Shown: one piece after another, positions 2,045 to 7,490 of the stretch
Layout of the letters: every line of letters begins with the position of its first letter
How positions within the stretch are numbered: the stretch's first letter is position 1
Source of the DNA: a virus
Lineage: Duplodnaviria; Heunggongvirae; Uroviricota; Caudoviricetes
Direction: 5' to 3' (one strand)
IMG/VR virus record: IMGVR_UViG_3300042259_000065
Length of the DNA stretch: 11,672 nt
Program-made: the position numbers and the translations under genes
The notes under the pieces: model-generated
The model's input: the letters and a program-made list of their open reading frames with translations, nothing else
What the model was told of the DNA's origin: nothing
Databases searched by the model: none

Positions 2045-2068
2045 AAGCCCACTCATTTGAGTGGGCTT
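2045..2068. terminator. Bidirectional terminator between convergent genes
   Basis: Perfect 10-bp stem AAGCCCACTC / GAGTGGGCTT, loop ATTT, between the stop at 2040 (+) and the stop at 2077 (-). Confidence 0.85.
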
Positions 2069-2076
2069 CTTCTTAT

Positions 2077-2253
2077 CTAAATATACTCTATTTCAACGTA
2101 GGAAGCTCTCAGAGAAGATTTAAACATCTCAGGCATAGATTGTTCATCAAAAATGTAAGCCTTCTCTCTGCTCGTTACAGAGCCATTTAAGGTCCAATAC
2201 ATAATCTGACCAGAGATGTTGACTTTTACGATGAATTTGTCAGTTGTCCTCAT
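2077..2253 (-). CDS. Small hypothetical protein (58 aa), not in the ORF track
   Basis: MRTTDKFIVKVNISGQIMYWTLNGSVTSREKAYIFDEQSMPEMFKSSLRASYVEIEYI*. The ATG overlaps the nrdG end, AAGGAG lies upstream, and the ORF fills the gap and stops 8 nt before the terminator. Confidence 0.6.
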   Translation of the reverse strand: MRTTDKFIVKVNISGQIMYWTLNGSVTSREKAYIFDEQSMPEMFKSSLRASYVEIEYI

Positions 2254-2731
2254 GAACTACCCAATCTCCTTTTATATTTTTCCATATGTGTTGGTTGGTA
2301 CTTCCTCTCCATATTAAAGATGTGTCTCTTAGTGATTGAATATATTTCCCATCAACCAACACATCTATCACATCCAAAATTTGACTACGTAATAAATCAT
2401 TTTGAATTTCTTCAAGAGTATAGCCTGTCCATAGCCAAATATCTTTATTTGGTAAAAGAGTTTTAACTTCTCTAGAGAAAATTAATACTTCTTCTAAGTT
2501 ACTTTTATGTAAAGGGTCTCCACCTGACCAAGTTAATCCTTTTATATAAGGTTGAGATAAGTCTTGTAATATTTGATCTTTGAATTCTCGTGTAATTATA
2601 TTACCAACATTACCCCATGAGTTTTTATTAAAACAACCTTCACATCCGTGTGAACACCTTGACACCCAAATGACACATCTAGCACCAGTCCCATTCTGTG
2701 TATCAAATTTTGAGTAATCTATATATTTCAT
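2240..2731 (-). CDS. nrdG: Anaerobic ribonucleotide reductase activating enzyme (radical SAM)
   Basis: CSHGCEGC (CxxxCxxC), GLTWSGGDPL, DIWLWTGY, DVLVDGKY and WRGSTNQ motifs; 4-nt ATGA overlap with nrdD. Confidence 0.97.
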   Translation of the reverse strand: MKYIDYSKFDTQNGTGARCVIWVSRCSHGCEGCFNKNSWGNVGNIITREFKDQILQDLSQPYIKGLTWSGGDPLHKSNLEEVLIFSREVKTLLPNKDIWLWTGYTLEEIQNDLLRSQILDVIDVLVDGKYIQSLRDTSLIWRGSTNQHIWKNIKGDWVVHEDN

Positions 2732-4815
2732 GCATTCTTAACCCGACACTTCTGCTCATCAAACTTACCTTTATTAGCTGGACGGGCTAAAGCTGAGTGG
2801 GTATACCCAGAGATACGCTTTATACATTCAGCAGTTTCTGGATTATTATTGCCGCACTCTGGACAGAAATAACCATGTTCATCAGCATCAAATTCTCCAC
2901 GATAACCACACTCAAAGCATTTATCTACAGGTTGGTTACAGATTAAGTAGTTGACTTTATCATATGCTGCTTTAACTACAGACTCAAATCCTTCGATATT
3001 ATTTATCATACTAGGCAACTCAATATTATTCACATTGCCACCTGATGCTAATAAATAATAGTCACTTTCTTCATCAAACTTGTCAACAATATTTAAATTT
3101 TTAAACACAGGTTGGTGAAAAGAGTTGGTAATAAAATCTCTGTCAAATTTCCACTCAGGGAACTCAGATTTAAGCTTGTTTGCAATAGTATAACAACCGT
3201 TCTCTAAGGGGCTACCGTATGGACTAAAAGCAATATTTGTCTTTTTAGTATATTCTTCTGTTTTATCTTTTAAAAACTCAATCACCTTCATGCCAAAATG
3301 TTTCGTCATATCATTAAGGATCTCTTGTGCTTCATATAAACCCCCATAGCCAATACTACAAGTTGCGTTACCATTATAGAATAAGTGGTCAATAGTATCT
3401 TCTGCTTTAAGAGTAGCTAATGCTCCATATTGCCATAAGATAGGACTTACTTTAGCTTTAGTTCCTTTCATTCTCTCTATACGAAACATATTTGCTTCAA
3501 AAGCTTTGTCACATAAAAATGACAATTCATCAAAGAACTTATCCTTATCACCATCAGCTTTTAAGGCAGCATAAGGTAATGATACAGTGGTTACGCCAAG
3601 GTTAAATCTACCAGATACTTTCTCTTTACCATCTTCTGTATATTTACCAACAAAACTTCTGCAGCCCATCGCTGTAATTACGTTCTCTGAATTTCCTGTC
3701 ATTTTTCTATTATTGGGCGCCATGACAAAATCAGGGTACATATGTTTTGCGGAACATTCTAAAGCTAGAATAAATTCTTCGTGATTTGGGTCTTCTTTAT
3801 TAAGATTAACACCTTCCTCTACAAAGTAGAGAACTTTAGGAAAAATAGGGCTTCTATGTTCTTTACCAATACCATTTATATGACATTTCAAATATTCTTC
3901 CTTAATCATCTTACAAAGTGGGTCTTGTGATAAAGATAAGCTTATTGTTGTAAATGCAGACTGACCATTAGACGACGTAACCGTTTGAATTTGGTATATA
4001 AATTTCTGACAAGCATCATAAATTTCTTTACGTAAAGATTCCTCTACGTAACTGTCAGGTAGTCCGTATTTCTCTTGTGTTTGTTTAATCTTCTTAAGAC
4101 TTTTCTCAGCATAAGGTTGCAACACTTTATCAAATTCATGCATTGATTGTCCACCATATGAAGATCCTGAAATCTTACTAAATATTTGACAGGCAACATT
4201 AGCTGCGGTTCCAATTGAGTTTGGTTGTTCAATCTCAACATCCCCTAGTTTTACACCATTTGCCAACATATACTCAAAATCATAAACTCCACAATTATGA
4301 ATCCCTTTACTAATAAAGTAATCTTTATCATGTATATGAATTGCACCCTTATCTTCAAGTTCGATAAGATGTTGTGGGTAAGATGTTTTTGCTAAGTGTT
4401 TGCTAACAATACCAGCAATAAGGTCTCTGTGAGTTACAGTTTGATTAGAGTCTTTATTAGAGTTCTCTCTAGAGACATCTTCATTACTACCATTGAGGAA
4501 TTCCTCAATATCATAAAATACTTTATGCTTACCTTCCCTGATACGATCTCGTTCAGCACGATATCTAATATAATGTTTTGCAATATCTTTGTGCTTACTT
4601 ACCATTAACGTATTTTCTACAACATCTTGTATACGTTCTACAGTTAAGTTGTGTTCGTGTGTAAGTTTAAATACTACCTTTGTTGTAATTTGATCTGCAA
4701 TATTGTGTGAATCATAATCAGAATACCCAACACTAGAACACGCTTTCTTTACAGCATTGAAGATTTTATTGGTATTGAAATCTTGTTCGATACCATCACG
4801 TTTAATTACTTTCAA
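2728..4815 (-). CDS. nrdD: Class III (anaerobic) ribonucleoside-triphosphate reductase with N-terminal ATP cone
   Basis: VIKRDG ATP cone, IHIHD, NC and MGCRSF active-site cysteines, CFECG/CPECG Zn site, RISGY glycyl-radical motif; TTG start with SD AAGGAGG. Confidence 0.98.
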   Translation of the reverse strand: MKVIKRDGIEQDFNTNKIFNAVKKACSSVGYSDYDSHNIADQITTKVVFKLTHEHNLTVERIQDVVENTLMVSKHKDIAKHYIRYRAERDRIREGKHKVFYDIEEFLNGSNEDVSRENSNKDSNQTVTHRDLIAGIVSKHLAKTSYPQHLIELEDKGAIHIHDKDYFISKGIHNCGVYDFEYMLANGVKLGDVEIEQPNSIGTAANVACQIFSKISGSSYGGQSMHEFDKVLQPYAEKSLKKIKQTQEKYGLPDSYVEESLRKEIYDACQKFIYQIQTVTSSNGQSAFTTISLSLSQDPLCKMIKEEYLKCHINGIGKEHRSPIFPKVLYFVEEGVNLNKEDPNHEEFILALECSAKHMYPDFVMAPNNRKMTGNSENVITAMGCRSFVGKYTEDGKEKVSGRFNLGVTTVSLPYAALKADGDKDKFFDELSFLCDKAFEANMFRIERMKGTKAKVSPILWQYGALATLKAEDTIDHLFYNGNATCSIGYGGLYEAQEILNDMTKHFGMKVIEFLKDKTEEYTKKTNIAFSPYGSPLENGCYTIANKLKSEFPEWKFDRDFITNSFHQPVFKNLNIVDKFDEESDYYLLASGGNVNNIELPSMINNIEGFESVVKAAYDKVNYLICNQPVDKCFECGYRGEFDADEHGYFCPECGNNNPETAECIKRISGYTHSALARPANKGKFDEQKCRVKNA

Positions 4816-4844
4816 AACACCCTCCTTATTTAGTGTGTATAATT

Positions 4845-4886
4845 ATTATCGCAGGGTTTCAGATGATCAACTTTGATCTATATCAA
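4845..4886 (-). promoter_or_regulatory. FNR box plus extended -10: class II FNR-dependent promoter for nrdDG
   Basis: TTGAT-CTAT-ATCAA at 4873-4886 is a full match to TTGAT-N4-ATCAA. TG-C-GATAAT lies at 4853-4845 (-). With +1 at ~4838 the box centre is at -41.5. Confidence 0.75.
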
Positions 4887-4917
4887 ATATAATAATATTA
4901 CATGAGAGCAATTTTGC

Positions 4918-4944
4918 AAAAGAAAAAAGCCTCCGAAGAAGCTT
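4918..4944 (-). terminator. Intrinsic terminator insulating the nrdD promoter
   Basis: AAGCTTC-TTCG-GAGGCTT hairpin (UUCG loop) followed by TTTTCTTTT on the - strand. Confidence 0.85.
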
Positions 4945-4987
4945 ATGTAGTAATAGTTAAAATAACTCCTGTAATCAATCCTAACAT
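4943..4987 (-). CDS. Possible 14-aa hydrophobic micropeptide MLGLITGVILTITT
   Basis: AGGAG 11 nt before the ATG; the stop abuts the terminator stem. Confidence 0.3.
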   Translation of the reverse strand: MLGLITGVILTITT

Positions 4988-5082: not shown

Positions 5083-5325
5083 CTAACGTTTTAATCCTTT
5101 TCCTACGCAACTTAAATCCCCAAGCCGTGTTTCAATTACCAAACCTTTTGATGCTACACAATTATCACTAAACTCTTTTTCTAATTGAGCCTGTATAGTG
5201 CTACCTATTAAGGCTATAACTATTGTAGCAATAAGTACTCCGAAGAATGCAATATTATACCTATCAATGTAAGCTAAACTTACTGCAAATAAGATAAAAC
5301 CTAAAATTAAAACTAAGTATATCAT
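5083..5325 (-). CDS. Small membrane protein (two predicted TM helices, 80 aa)
   Basis: SD AGGAG; two hydrophobic stretches, then a polar tail with two Cys. Confidence 0.75.
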   Translation of the reverse strand: MIYLVLILGFILFAVSLAYIDRYNIAFFGVLIATIVIALIGSTIQAQLEKEFSDNCVASKGLVIETRLGDLSCVGKGLKR

Positions 5326-5418: not shown

Positions 5419-7068
5419 TTATTCTACTTCAACTCTAAAATTAATATCATCACCAAGAACTTTAATATATCCTTTTCTAAAGTAGTCTACAGCTTTGTGG
5501 ATTTTACTTTCAGCAACAGTAATACTATCGTGCAATGGGAGCAAAACAATATTATCATCTAACAACAACCTAGCTGTCTCTACAATAATATCACTGTCAA
5601 TTCTCATAAGTCTTTTTGAAACACCTGTATAGAAATGATGGGATATAGGTTTGTTATGGGATTCAACTTGGTTTATGATTTCTTCAACATCTGCCATAGG
5701 TACTCCAACATAGTCCATACTGTCTTCTTTGCTTGTACCTGCTTTTTGATAATCTTGAATCATTTTGTATCTAAGAGCTTTGATAGCGTCTTGTTTAGAT
5801 TTAGAATTCAACATAACAAGTAATGCAATTTTAGCTACAGACCTTAGAGGATTGTATTTCTCAATATTATAGTATTTACAATACTTATTTATATCCTTAG
5901 TGTCGATAGTGATATTAAGTTTTGGATACGGATCAAAATCATCAGGTAGTATAATACCCTCCTCCCTGTATAATAAGCTAGGATGAAGTGCTTTAATATC
6001 AGCGGTCAAGGTCTTCTCACCATCAATTTTAAGCAATTTTCTCTTTGGTTTTGGTAGTGTAGTCCATTCACCTCTATCAAATAGCCTACCGCATAAGTCG
6101 AAACTTGAATCAATAAATATACGAGAGAAAGATATCCCATCCAAAACAACACCATCAATGTCTATAGTATGTTCACTGATAGTATCATTTAATTTATTCA
6201 TAATATTTTCATTCACTTCAATGAACTCCTCTAAATTATCAAAACAATCTATAGATACGATATTCTTATCTGAATCTCTGACTATAATAGTATTCCTTGG
6301 TTTATTATTTTCTTTGATATAAAGCTCATCTCTGCAAACACTAATCAGGTGAGCAAGTAGTTCTCCTTTAGGTATGAAAAGTGAAGACTCAGAACTTTTA
6401 TCTTTATACTTAAATCCAATAAAGGATACACCCATGCGGTTATACTCTAGCATATCAACCAAGTCCATTAGGTAGTTAAAATTAGGATGCACCATAGATT
6501 CTTTAATATCTCTATCATCTTTAATGGCTTTTGTATATACACCTTTCCACCTATAATACATAAGACCCATATTGGAATTCTTTATCATCCTATGTAAGTG
6601 TTTAGCAAAGAATAAACAAGTGTCTTCTAACGGTTTGCTATGTATACGCGCCTTGTTAACTACATTCTTGTAATAGAACCTTAACATAGAAGACAGGAAC
6701 AAGGCTGTATCAACAATACTGGTACTCTGCAAAGAATCTTTCCTTACAGAGGTATAACATATACACTTCTTAAATTGAGCAATATCCAATAAGAATTTAC
6801 TCATAAGATCCCATCTAGATGAACCATCAATCAAACTATATAAACTATCTATACAATCACTATACTCTACAATAGAAATATCACTATTATCACTATCTAA
6901 AGACTCTATGTAGTGTGTCCTTGTAAGAGAGCTTATAGAGCAAGATAAAAGTTTCTCATCAACATCTTGTAAGTCTTTGGTTTTCTTAGGTAATCTACTA
7001 TAAGGTGTCTTATAAAAAGGTAAATTACTAACCTTTTTCTTTGAAGATTTTTGTACCTTTTTTACCAT
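5419..7068 (-). CDS. Divergent family A DNA polymerase / T7-RNAP-like right-hand nucleotidyltransferase (TV-Pol-like), ~549 aa, no recognisable exonuclease domain
   Basis: GRLF (6090-6079), motif A TADIKALHPSLLY (Asp at 6000-5998), motif B LRSVAKIALLVMLN, motif C LLPLHDSITV (HD at 5532-5527), in the correct order. Start reassigned from TTG 7092 to ATG 7068 because SD GAGGTG lies 6 nt upstream. Confidence 0.7.
   Translation of the reverse strand: MVKKVQKSSKKKVSNLPFYKTPYSRLPKKTKDLQDVDEKLLSCSISSLTRTHYIESLDSDNSDISIVEYSDCIDSLYSLIDGSSRWDLMSKFLLDIAQFKKCICYTSVRKDSLQSTSIVDTALFLSSMLRFYYKNVVNKARIHSKPLEDTCLFFAKHLHRMIKNSNMGLMYYRWKGVYTKAIKDDRDIKESMVHPNFNYLMDLVDMLEYNRMGVSFIGFKYKDKSSESSLFIPKGELLAHLISVCRDELYIKENNKPRNTIIVRDSDKNIVSIDCFDNLEEFIEVNENIMNKLNDTISEHTIDIDGVVLDGISFSRIFIDSSFDLCGRLFDRGEWTTLPKPKRKLLKIDGEKTLTADIKALHPSLLYREEGIILPDDFDPYPKLNITIDTKDINKYCKYYNIEKYNPLRSVAKIALLVMLNSKSKQDAIKALRYKMIQDYQKAGTSKEDSMDYVGVPMADVEEIINQVESHNKPISHHFYTGVSKRLMRIDSDIIVETARLLLDDNIVLLPLHDSITVAESKIHKAVDYFRKGYIKVLGDDINFRVEVE
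6833..6896 (-). repeat. Cluster of short direct repeats (ATAGTGAT x3, ATAGTTT x2) inside the 5' end of the polymerase gene
   Basis: On + strand: ATCACTAT at 6856, 6880 and 6889; AAACTAT at 6833 and 6842. Confidence 0.5.
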
Positions 7069-7204
7069 ATAATTCACCTCTCGTGATTTCAATTTCTTCT
7101 GGATTATTGACTATAAATTCAAAACTGTCCTCTAGTTTAAGCTTATGCTTTCTTACAATATGCATAACAATATCCATAGAATCCTGTTTAAGACTTACTC
7201 TCAT
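7028..7204 (-). CDS. Small protein (58 aa), possible ribbon-helix-helix DNA-binding protein; not in the ORF track
   Basis: MRVSLKQDSMDIVMHIVRKHKLKLEDSFEFIVNNPEEIEITRGELYGKKGTKIFKEKG*. TAATG overlap with the HTH stop, GGAG 8 nt upstream, overlaps the polymerase start by 41 nt. Confidence 0.65.
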   Translation of the reverse strand: MRVSLKQDSMDIVMHIVRKHKLKLEDSFEFIVNNPEEIEITRGELYGKKGTKIFKEKG

Positions 7205-7407
7205 TAATTAATCTCCATATAAATATTAAGGCCTAATGTATGGATTGCTTGTTCGATTCTTTCCACTTTAACACCATCACCATTGTGATTTATGATCTGG
7301 AATAATTGACTTCTTGCCAAACCCGTTACCTGTTGTAAAGTGGAGTAAGACAATTTATTTTCAATCTTATAGTTCTTAAAAGTAGAACAAAGTTTCTCTC
7401 TAATCAT
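7204..7407 (-). CDS. Cro/XRE-like HTH DNA-binding protein (67 aa)
   Basis: KLSYSTLQQVTGLARSQLFQIIN...KVERIEQAIHTLG follows the XRE HTH pattern; SD GAGGT. Confidence 0.8.
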   Translation of the reverse strand: MIREKLCSTFKNYKIENKLSYSTLQQVTGLARSQLFQIINHNGDGVKVERIEQAIHTLGLNIYMEIN

Positions 7408-7490
7408 ATCTACCTCTTAATATCTTGTATCTGAAAACAAGAACACTTGTCAAGAGTGTATACTCTATAACTTAATATCTATCAAGTTTC

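Follow-up and report, generated by a model that had tools for sequence, protein, structure and literature searches.

The locus and its genes

The window, by which is meant the whole stretch of 11,672 nucleotides analysed here, is part of a 39.6-kb viral contig. Its minus strand carries nrdD, nrdG and a small gene, orf58 (Table 1). The assignment of the first two as phage nrdD and nrdG, made in a preliminary description of this DNA, is borne out by the Pfam domains of both products and by the homology of NrdD to proteins of named phages. A glycyl-radical NrdD is paired with a radical-SAM activase, NrdG, the combination that marks a class III ribonucleotide reductase (RNR) operon. The Radical_SAM Pfam match of nrdG is itself sub-threshold. 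nrdD begins with a TTG codon at 4815, preceded by AAGGAGG. No Pfam family was matched by orf58, which is probably co-transcribed as the third gene of the nrdDG unit, and the 10-bp hairpin downstream is likely the end of that unit.

Table 1. Features of the nrdD-nrdG-orf58 locus in window coordinates
Feature	Position	Strand	Evidence
nrdD, class III ribonucleotide reductase, N-terminal ATP-cone	2728..4815	-	Pfam NRDD 1.2e-138, ATP-cone 1.8e-22, Gly_radical 3.5e-17
nrdG, radical-SAM activase, overlaps nrdD stop	2240..2731	-	Pfam Fer4_12 1.5e-45
orf58, small conserved gene (58 residues), overlaps nrdG end	2077..2253	-	66% identical to same-position gene in 11895-B1
10-bp hairpin between convergent genes	2045..2068	.	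likely end of the unit
FNR-type inverted repeat, TTGAT-ATAG-ATCAA	4886..4873, centre 4879.5	-	sequence; 10/10 to consensus
22-nt spacer, box to -10 hexamer	4851..4872	-	length kept in all seven lineages, sequence not
Extended -10, TGcGATAAT (TG 4853-4852, c 4851, GATAAT 4850..4845)	4853..4845	-	sequence
Predicted transcription start, A4838, 7 nt after the -10	4838	-	inferred from geometry only
Intrinsic terminator of the upstream operon, AAGCUUC-UUCG-GAGGCUU hairpin (4944..4927) plus U run, tail UUUUUUCUUUU	4918..4944	-	terminator scan, fold

Two near-identical sister phages were found, G001 of 125 kb (99% complete) and G002 of 90 kb. G001 encodes a second reductase, a class I RNR, elsewhere in its genome; the large subunit of this enzyme matches in two pieces (84861-85079 and 86119-87426). 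In many relatives an insertion interrupts nrdD itself after about residue 385 (L002 4001-6393, L003 3989-6335, and also L009, L012-L015, L035 and L036). Some of these insertions carry HNH or I-HmuI-like endonuclease genes. The nrdD of the window is uninterrupted.

By NrdD protein the closest named phages are Vibrio phage 11895-B1, at 70% identity, and Pseudaeromonas phage KLEP7, at 58%. Phage 11895-B1 is known to be related to the cholera phage ICP1 (PMC9040626). The three complete genomes, those of G001, 11895-B1 and ICP1, all have a G+C content of 35-37%. The window phage is a lytic, ICP1-related phage, and its DNA is present in metagenomes from wastewater, bioreactors, the subsurface, shale gas and food; no RNA run was among those listed for the window. 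The hosts of the cultured relatives are Vibrio and Pseudaeromonas, and in both of these genera an FNR with E. coli-type specificity is expected.

Promoter architecture upstream of nrdD

Read along the minus strand, a hairpin with a U run is followed by an inverted repeat, 22 nt, TGcGATAAT, AAGGAGG and the TTG start codon. The repeat, TTGATATAGATCAA (TTGATCTATATCAA on the plus strand), agrees at all ten half-site bases with the FNR consensus TTGATNNNNATCAA (PMC4601167) and lies 64.5 nt upstream of the nrdD start codon. At the -35 position stands AAGTTG, which matches TTGACA at one base of six. A recognisable -10 is thus joined to a poor or absent -35, as in class II promoters. The -10 hexamer begins 29.5 nt downstream of the centre of the box, which puts that centre at -41.5 for a start seven nucleotides after the hexamer. 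The preliminary description had claimed the perfect FNR box, the extended -10 and the -41.5 spacing. The box, with its coordinates, and the extended -10 were confirmed on the sequence, and the arithmetic of the spacing is right because the 22-nt gap and a start seven bases past the hexamer, a start predicted from the geometry, together give this value. The predicted start sits in an ATACACA motif that also follows the -10 in 11895-B1 and in the metagenomic relative L014.

The operon upstream ends in an intrinsic terminator, in which a G+C-containing hairpin with a 7-bp stem and a UUCG loop leads directly into a U run. The scan found one such element where shuffles gave 0.2, and the fold has a minimum free energy of -7.8 kcal/mol (z = -2.0). 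G001 shows two compensatory stem changes, G-C to A-T and U.G to C-G. The earlier claim that the terminator cuts nrdD off from upstream transcription holds in part: the terminator is present, but the cut-off was overstated, as the hairpin is modest and has no counterpart at that place in L016 or ICP1, where the box comes within 6-9 nt of the stop codon of the gene before it. A 14-codon hydrophobic mini-ORF (4986..4942, minus strand), with AGGAG in front, ends at the terminator. It is probably no gene and was not treated as one because its ATG is CTG in G001.

Rarity of the composite

Chance predicts 0.04 perfect boxes per window and 0.47 per 125-kb genome. The composite of box, 22 nt and -10 scores 15/16. 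When the 150 nt upstream were shuffled, none of 3000 mononucleotide and none of 500 dinucleotide versions attained this value. The nrdD site is the only perfect box in the 39.6-kb record. A genome-wide count of FNR boxes, one of the checks proposed at the outset, gave three perfect boxes in the 125-kb G001, and only the one before nrdD has a good -10 with TG at 22 nt. The composite occurs once per genome in G001 and in 11895-B1, and in ICP1 no other site joins a consensus-like -10 with a TG.

The other two perfect boxes of G001 (107519-107532 and 122100-122113) are apparently coding by our own reading of the frame. Both would encode F-D-x-N-Q-Y-K, and a common peptide motif, not regulation, may account for them. 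Elsewhere in the window, in the gap that precedes a small-gene/polymerase-like operon (7407..5419), a 9/10 box (7472-7485, minus strand, TTGATAGATATTAA) is followed after 18 nt by a TTGACA hexamer. The box is centred at about -60, and its mismatch removes the key C of one half-site.

Conservation among haplotypes and relatives

Three haplotypes of the window phage were compared over 4816-4944: the window itself, that shared by G001, G002 and X9, and X14, the last from listed changes only. The listed differences amount to 21 of the 129 positions (16%) and five indels. None of the listed changes falls in the ten half-site bases or the 9-nt extended -10 (hypergeometric p = 0.026). Half-sites and TGcGATAAT are invariant in G001 and X9, and for X14 no change in them is listed. 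X14 has one listed change in the N4 of the box (at 4880), and four substitutions and no indel in the 22-nt spacer. An alternative promoter register, TTGATC-17-AATAAT, has both of its hexamers hit by changes among the G001 and X14 haplotypes.

Megablast of the region against the phage collection returned no match, and a related-locus search of viral contigs returned only the near-identical phages and L021. Relatives were therefore reached through NrdD protein searches. Upstream DNA was compared from NrdD homologues found in a search of 5.8 billion proteins, from the two named phages and from ICP1. A metagenome scan for related loci added L022-L031, mostly without a box.

A common design precedes nrdD in seven lineages that have an intergenic region there: wTGAy-N4-rTCAw, 22 nt, and a -10 usually extended by TG (Table 2). 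The six lineages other than that of the window are four metagenomic phages, Vibrio phage 11895-B1 and Vibrio phage ICP1. In L016, L014, L009 and ICP1 the TG stands at the same position as in the extended -10 of the window. The ICP1 counterpart of window 4816-4917 spans record positions 59780-59866, with a predicted start near 59837, some 7 nt past TATAAT. Mean pairwise identity across the seven is 0.79 in the ten half-site bases and 0.74 in the -10, and elsewhere at background level: 0.33 in the N4, 0.29 in the 22-nt spacer and 0.33 in the 20 nt of upstream flank. The distance from box to start codon varies from 64.5 to 72.5, with the spacer constant at 22 nt. Conservation of the box in related phages had been set as a check on the idea, and this check came out in its favour, the half-sites and the 22-nt spacing being kept in six diverged relatives, ICP1 included, within surroundings at background identity.

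Table 2. The layout before nrdD in seven phage lineages
Lineage	NrdD identity to window	Box	Box to -10	-10
Window / G001		TTGATATAGATCAA	22 nt	TGcGATAAT
L016	67%	TTGATGTAGATCAA	22 nt	TGtTATTAT
L012	74% (N-terminal exon)	TTGATTTATAGCAA	22 nt	TATACT
11895-B1	70%	TTGACACTGGTCAA	22 nt	TATAAT
L014	68%	ATGATCTGTGTCAA	22 nt	TGgGAAAAT
L009	72%	ATGATCTCGGTCAT	22 nt	TGtTAGAAT
ICP1	26% overall	TTGACACAAGTCAA	22 nt	TGgTATAAT

The boxes of the relatives were located with the same score that is reported for them, so each locus was tested against its own shuffles, a correction that applies per locus only. In four lineages p was below about 0.002, and in two it was 0.02-0.06. The match to the FNR consensus is 10/10 in two lineages, 9/10 in one and 8/10 in 11895-B1 and ICP1, which have TTGAC/GTCAA. 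The outer T:A pair of the half-sites (TTGA/TCAA cores) is found in the window, L016, L012 (one half-site degraded), 11895-B1 and ICP1. An A replaces the FNR-specific first T in both halves in L009 and in one half in L014.

The NrdD of ICP1 (gp113, L046 2290-4455) resembles that of the window in its first 25 or so residues. Since this stretch and the promoter design are common to the two phages while overall identity is only 26%, the comparison suggests that the body of the ICP1 nrdD gene was exchanged behind a conserved promoter and 5' end.

Eight relatives (KLEP7, L015, L017, L021 and L033-L036) have no box. In these nrdD lies directly behind another gene, which leaves no room for a promoter of its own; the wiring is thus not general for phage nrdD. 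Two loci whose NrdD is more distant (52-55% identity), L022 (about 480-560) and L028 (about 1420-1500), have a different, conserved palindrome before nrdD, ATGCACTT-N12-AAGTGCAT, which runs into the -10 (TATAAT/TATATG) and suggests that a different regulator may act at their nrdD promoter.

In 11895-B1 a 35-nt direct repeat (L002 2911-2945 and 3926-3960) consists of the box and a hairpin, CAACACA-AGGA-TGTGTTG. The two copies flank a cassette of about 1 kb that holds a KilA-N 'ant' gene with its own promoter, and TATAAT is kept in the downstream copy only. The cassette looks like an insertion into the nrdD promoter region. A recurrent phage promoter motif in 11895-B1 was considered and rejected, as there are just these two copies, formed by the direct repeat around the ant cassette.

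CRP-type cores in the same phages

ICP1 contains 17 perfect GTGA-N6-TCAC cores, where base composition, by a rough estimate, predicts about 1.5. In the early region four of these cores lie exactly 22 nt before a -10 (record positions 5141, 6362, 8878 and 10324). G001 has a cluster of CRP-type cores at 109817-113041 (L042), several of them likewise exactly 22 nt before a -10. These early promoters resemble the nrdD promoter in having a 14-bp core, 22 nt and a -10. They differ from it in their core, GTGA-N6-TCAC in several clustered copies as against a single TTGA-N6-TCAA before nrdD. Phages of the G001/ICP1 type therefore combine a single promoter design with either of two cores. Published work tells CRP sites from FNR sites by the outer base pair of the half-site, G:C in the former and T:A in the latter. 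Because the early promoters use the same geometry with CRP-type cores, the T/A discriminator at the nrdD site looks meaningful.

Comparison with known systems

The promoter shares with the class II FNR promoters of E. coli and other gamma-proteobacteria a perfect consensus site, a centre at -41.5 (for the predicted start), the lack of a usable -35 and a -10 with TG. It differs in lying on the genome of a lytic phage, in being known from sequence, and in having relatives with ATGA or TTGAC half-sites.

In E. coli and Salmonella nrdDG is FNR-activated and NrdR-repressed (Roca et al. 2008, as cited in PMC2892513 and PMC4009431). The host promoter and that of the phage place the same type of operon behind FNR-type boxes, and the physiological logic would be shared, an oxygen-labile enzyme being made only in anoxia. 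In E. coli two such boxes, TTGAGCTACATCAA and TTGATGCAAAGCAC, precede nrdDG at a distance of 31 bp from each other, whereas the phage has one. By our own reading of the sequence the two E. coli boxes lie at about -64.5 and about -33.5, reportedly in agreement with Roca et al. Across Enterobacterales a box of at least 9/10 was found within 450 nt of the nrdD ATG in 54 of 76 cases, most of them at about -250 to -210. E. coli nrdDG also has two NrdR boxes, at 19/22, 31 bp apart, and a leader of about 200 nt, as against predicted leaders of about 22-30 nt in the phages and about 22 nt in the window. NrdR boxes have the consensus acaCwAtATaTwGtg (PMC4009431) and come as two, about three helical turns apart. 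In the window promoter the best candidate NrdR boxes scored 16/22, a value that 162 of 1000 shuffles also attained, and no score in any of the seven phage promoters exceeded shuffles. With one box at -41.5, no NrdR box and a short leader, the phage promoter is not a copy of the host nrdDG promoter.

Cyanophages carry PhoB boxes before pstS and phoA, and sites for NtcA, a Crp/Fnr-family protein, in promoters. The likeness is that a lytic phage puts the site of a host global regulator before a metabolic gene, whose expression would then follow the physiology of the host. The present case differs from these in the signal, oxygen through FNR, in the gene, a class III RNR, and in the phage and host group, ICP1-like phages whose cultured relatives infect Vibrio and Pseudaeromonas.

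A model for FNR-dependent activation

The interval 4886..4838 is read here, with a probability of roughly 0.6, as a class II, activator-dependent sigma-70 promoter that would be activated by host FNR and would drive nrdD-nrdG-orf58. From the layout we infer that the box is bound by FNR, acting as an activator, and that +1 lies near 4838. RNA polymerase would find only the extended -10, TGcGATAAT, and no -35, and would be recruited by a host FNR dimer on TTGATATAGATCAA centred at -41.5. FNR binds DNA only with an intact [4Fe-4S] cluster, that is, when there is no oxygen. The terminator at 4944..4918 would let less transcription through from the operon upstream. In oxygen, the oxygen-labile class III reductase would then be made at a low basal level at most, and the class I reductase would serve aerobic infection. 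In anoxia nrdDG would be induced. The box stands before the one operon whose product oxygen destroys. Because the FNR-type layout recurs in six diverged relatives, ICP1 among them, the phage probably reads the oxygen state of its host.

Candidate regulators at the box

The case for and against FNR, from which the above probability is drawn, leaves some room for another regulator and little for an incidental palindrome. The main doubts about FNR are the temporal class of the ICP1 genes and the ATGA half-sites in two lineages.

The palindrome could instead be the operator of a phage-encoded dimeric regulator or of a host regulator other than FNR, which from a class II-like position would turn nrdDG on at middle times irrespective of oxygen. 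This is possible but rather unlikely. ICP1 gp112-114 (ant, nrdD and nrdG) were classed as 'Middle' in a standard laboratory infection time course, a source that gives temporal classes only (PMC7567579 Table S1). This class is a rare one in ICP1, and it means that nrdDG transcripts arise under those conditions with a phage-like timing, which would also suit a phage-made activator; read-through out of gp108-112 is a possible source of the same transcripts. The FNR-specific T is lost in L009 and L014, where the half-sites drift to ATGAT/GTCAT. ICP1 moreover has a second TTGAC-N4-GTCAA palindrome 2.1 kb upstream (TTGACAAAGGTCAA, L046 180-206), which covers the -35 of the annotated early promoter Porf108, 7 nt before TATAAA. 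It has the half-sites of the nrdD box in a repressing position, and the pair would suit a switch that is off early and on at middle times. A second copy of the box also lies before ant in 11895-B1.

Against such a regulator, a middle motif should recur at many other genes of DNA metabolism, but the composite is found once per genome in G001 and 11895-B1. The 10/10 and 9/10 matches to the FNR consensus in three lineages also speak for FNR, and the second copy in 11895-B1 belongs to the direct repeat that flanks the inserted ant cassette and is without a -10. A search for a Crp/Fnr-family protein (PF13545) gave nothing but weak sub-threshold HTH matches in G001 and none in 11895-B1. The ant-like genes beside the box differ in family, pRha in ICP1 and KilA-N in 11895-B1, and neither was found when sought in G001. 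Since pRha and KilA-N are both missing from G001, the idea of one Ant/Roi-type binder for all lineages was dropped.

That the promoter is an ordinary constitutive one of the extended -10 kind, whose palindrome binds nothing or binds FNR to no effect and owes its presence to common descent and an AT-rich composition, is improbable. A promoter with an extended -10 can be active even if it lacks a -35 and has no activator. Boxes of at least 7/10 are common in AT-rich DNA, the window holds five boxes with at most one mismatch against 1.4 expected, and the composites of L009 and L014 are only marginally above shuffles. Descent alone, however, leaves unexplained why the half-sites are kept at 0.79 beside a spacer at 0.29 and flanks at 0.33, why the 22 nt are invariant, and why three haplotypes that differ at 16% of neighbouring positions have no listed change in the half-sites.

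The preliminary description had further proposed a toggle, in which FNR would repress a second promoter, TTGCAA-16-TATTAT (4919..4892), while activating the one downstream; the hexamers exist (a 9/12 match) and a start about 7 nt past TATTAT would fall at about 4885, inside the box, but the proposal is very improbable, since promoter-like matches occur here at chance density (8 found, 6.0 +/- 2.3 expected), TATTAT (4897..4892) is not conserved, being CATGGT in G001, G002 and X9 and, by the changes listed for it, TATGGT in X14, with the box and the downstream -10 intact, its -35 overlaps the U run of the terminator, and the relatives have neither a comparable upstream promoter nor room for one.

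Biological significance

The observation is confirmed and is strengthened by its conservation, and host FNR is the best-supported explanation of the layout. By its bases and spacing the phage promoter resembles canonical class II FNR promoters, here in a biological setting that is new. As a mechanism this is textbook knowledge; what is of value is the new context and the conservation, not any new principle. A literature search returned no report of an FNR box before a phage nrdD, and a 2026 paper on ICP1 and PLE has nothing on nrdD.

A survey of phage RNRs (PMC3653736) calls for their expression to be studied under different conditions. In many phages of facultative anaerobes an aerobic RNR is accompanied by an anaerobic one, which raises the question of how they choose between the two. 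A conserved FNR-type class II promoter offers a concrete and cheap answer: the phage would borrow the oxygen sensor of its host. Tentatively, and at somewhat less than even odds, ICP1-like lytic phages may run parts of their programme on two host sensors of the Crp/Fnr family through a single promoter design, with CRP-type early promoters reading the carbon state and the FNR-type nrdDG-orf58 promoter serving as an anoxia module. ICP1 has the same design, which opens the idea to immediate test in a phage and host that are genetically tractable and encounter each other in the anoxic gut. If it is true, the supply of DNA precursors to the phage would be matched, through the oxygen sensor of the host, to gut-like or sediment-like anoxia.
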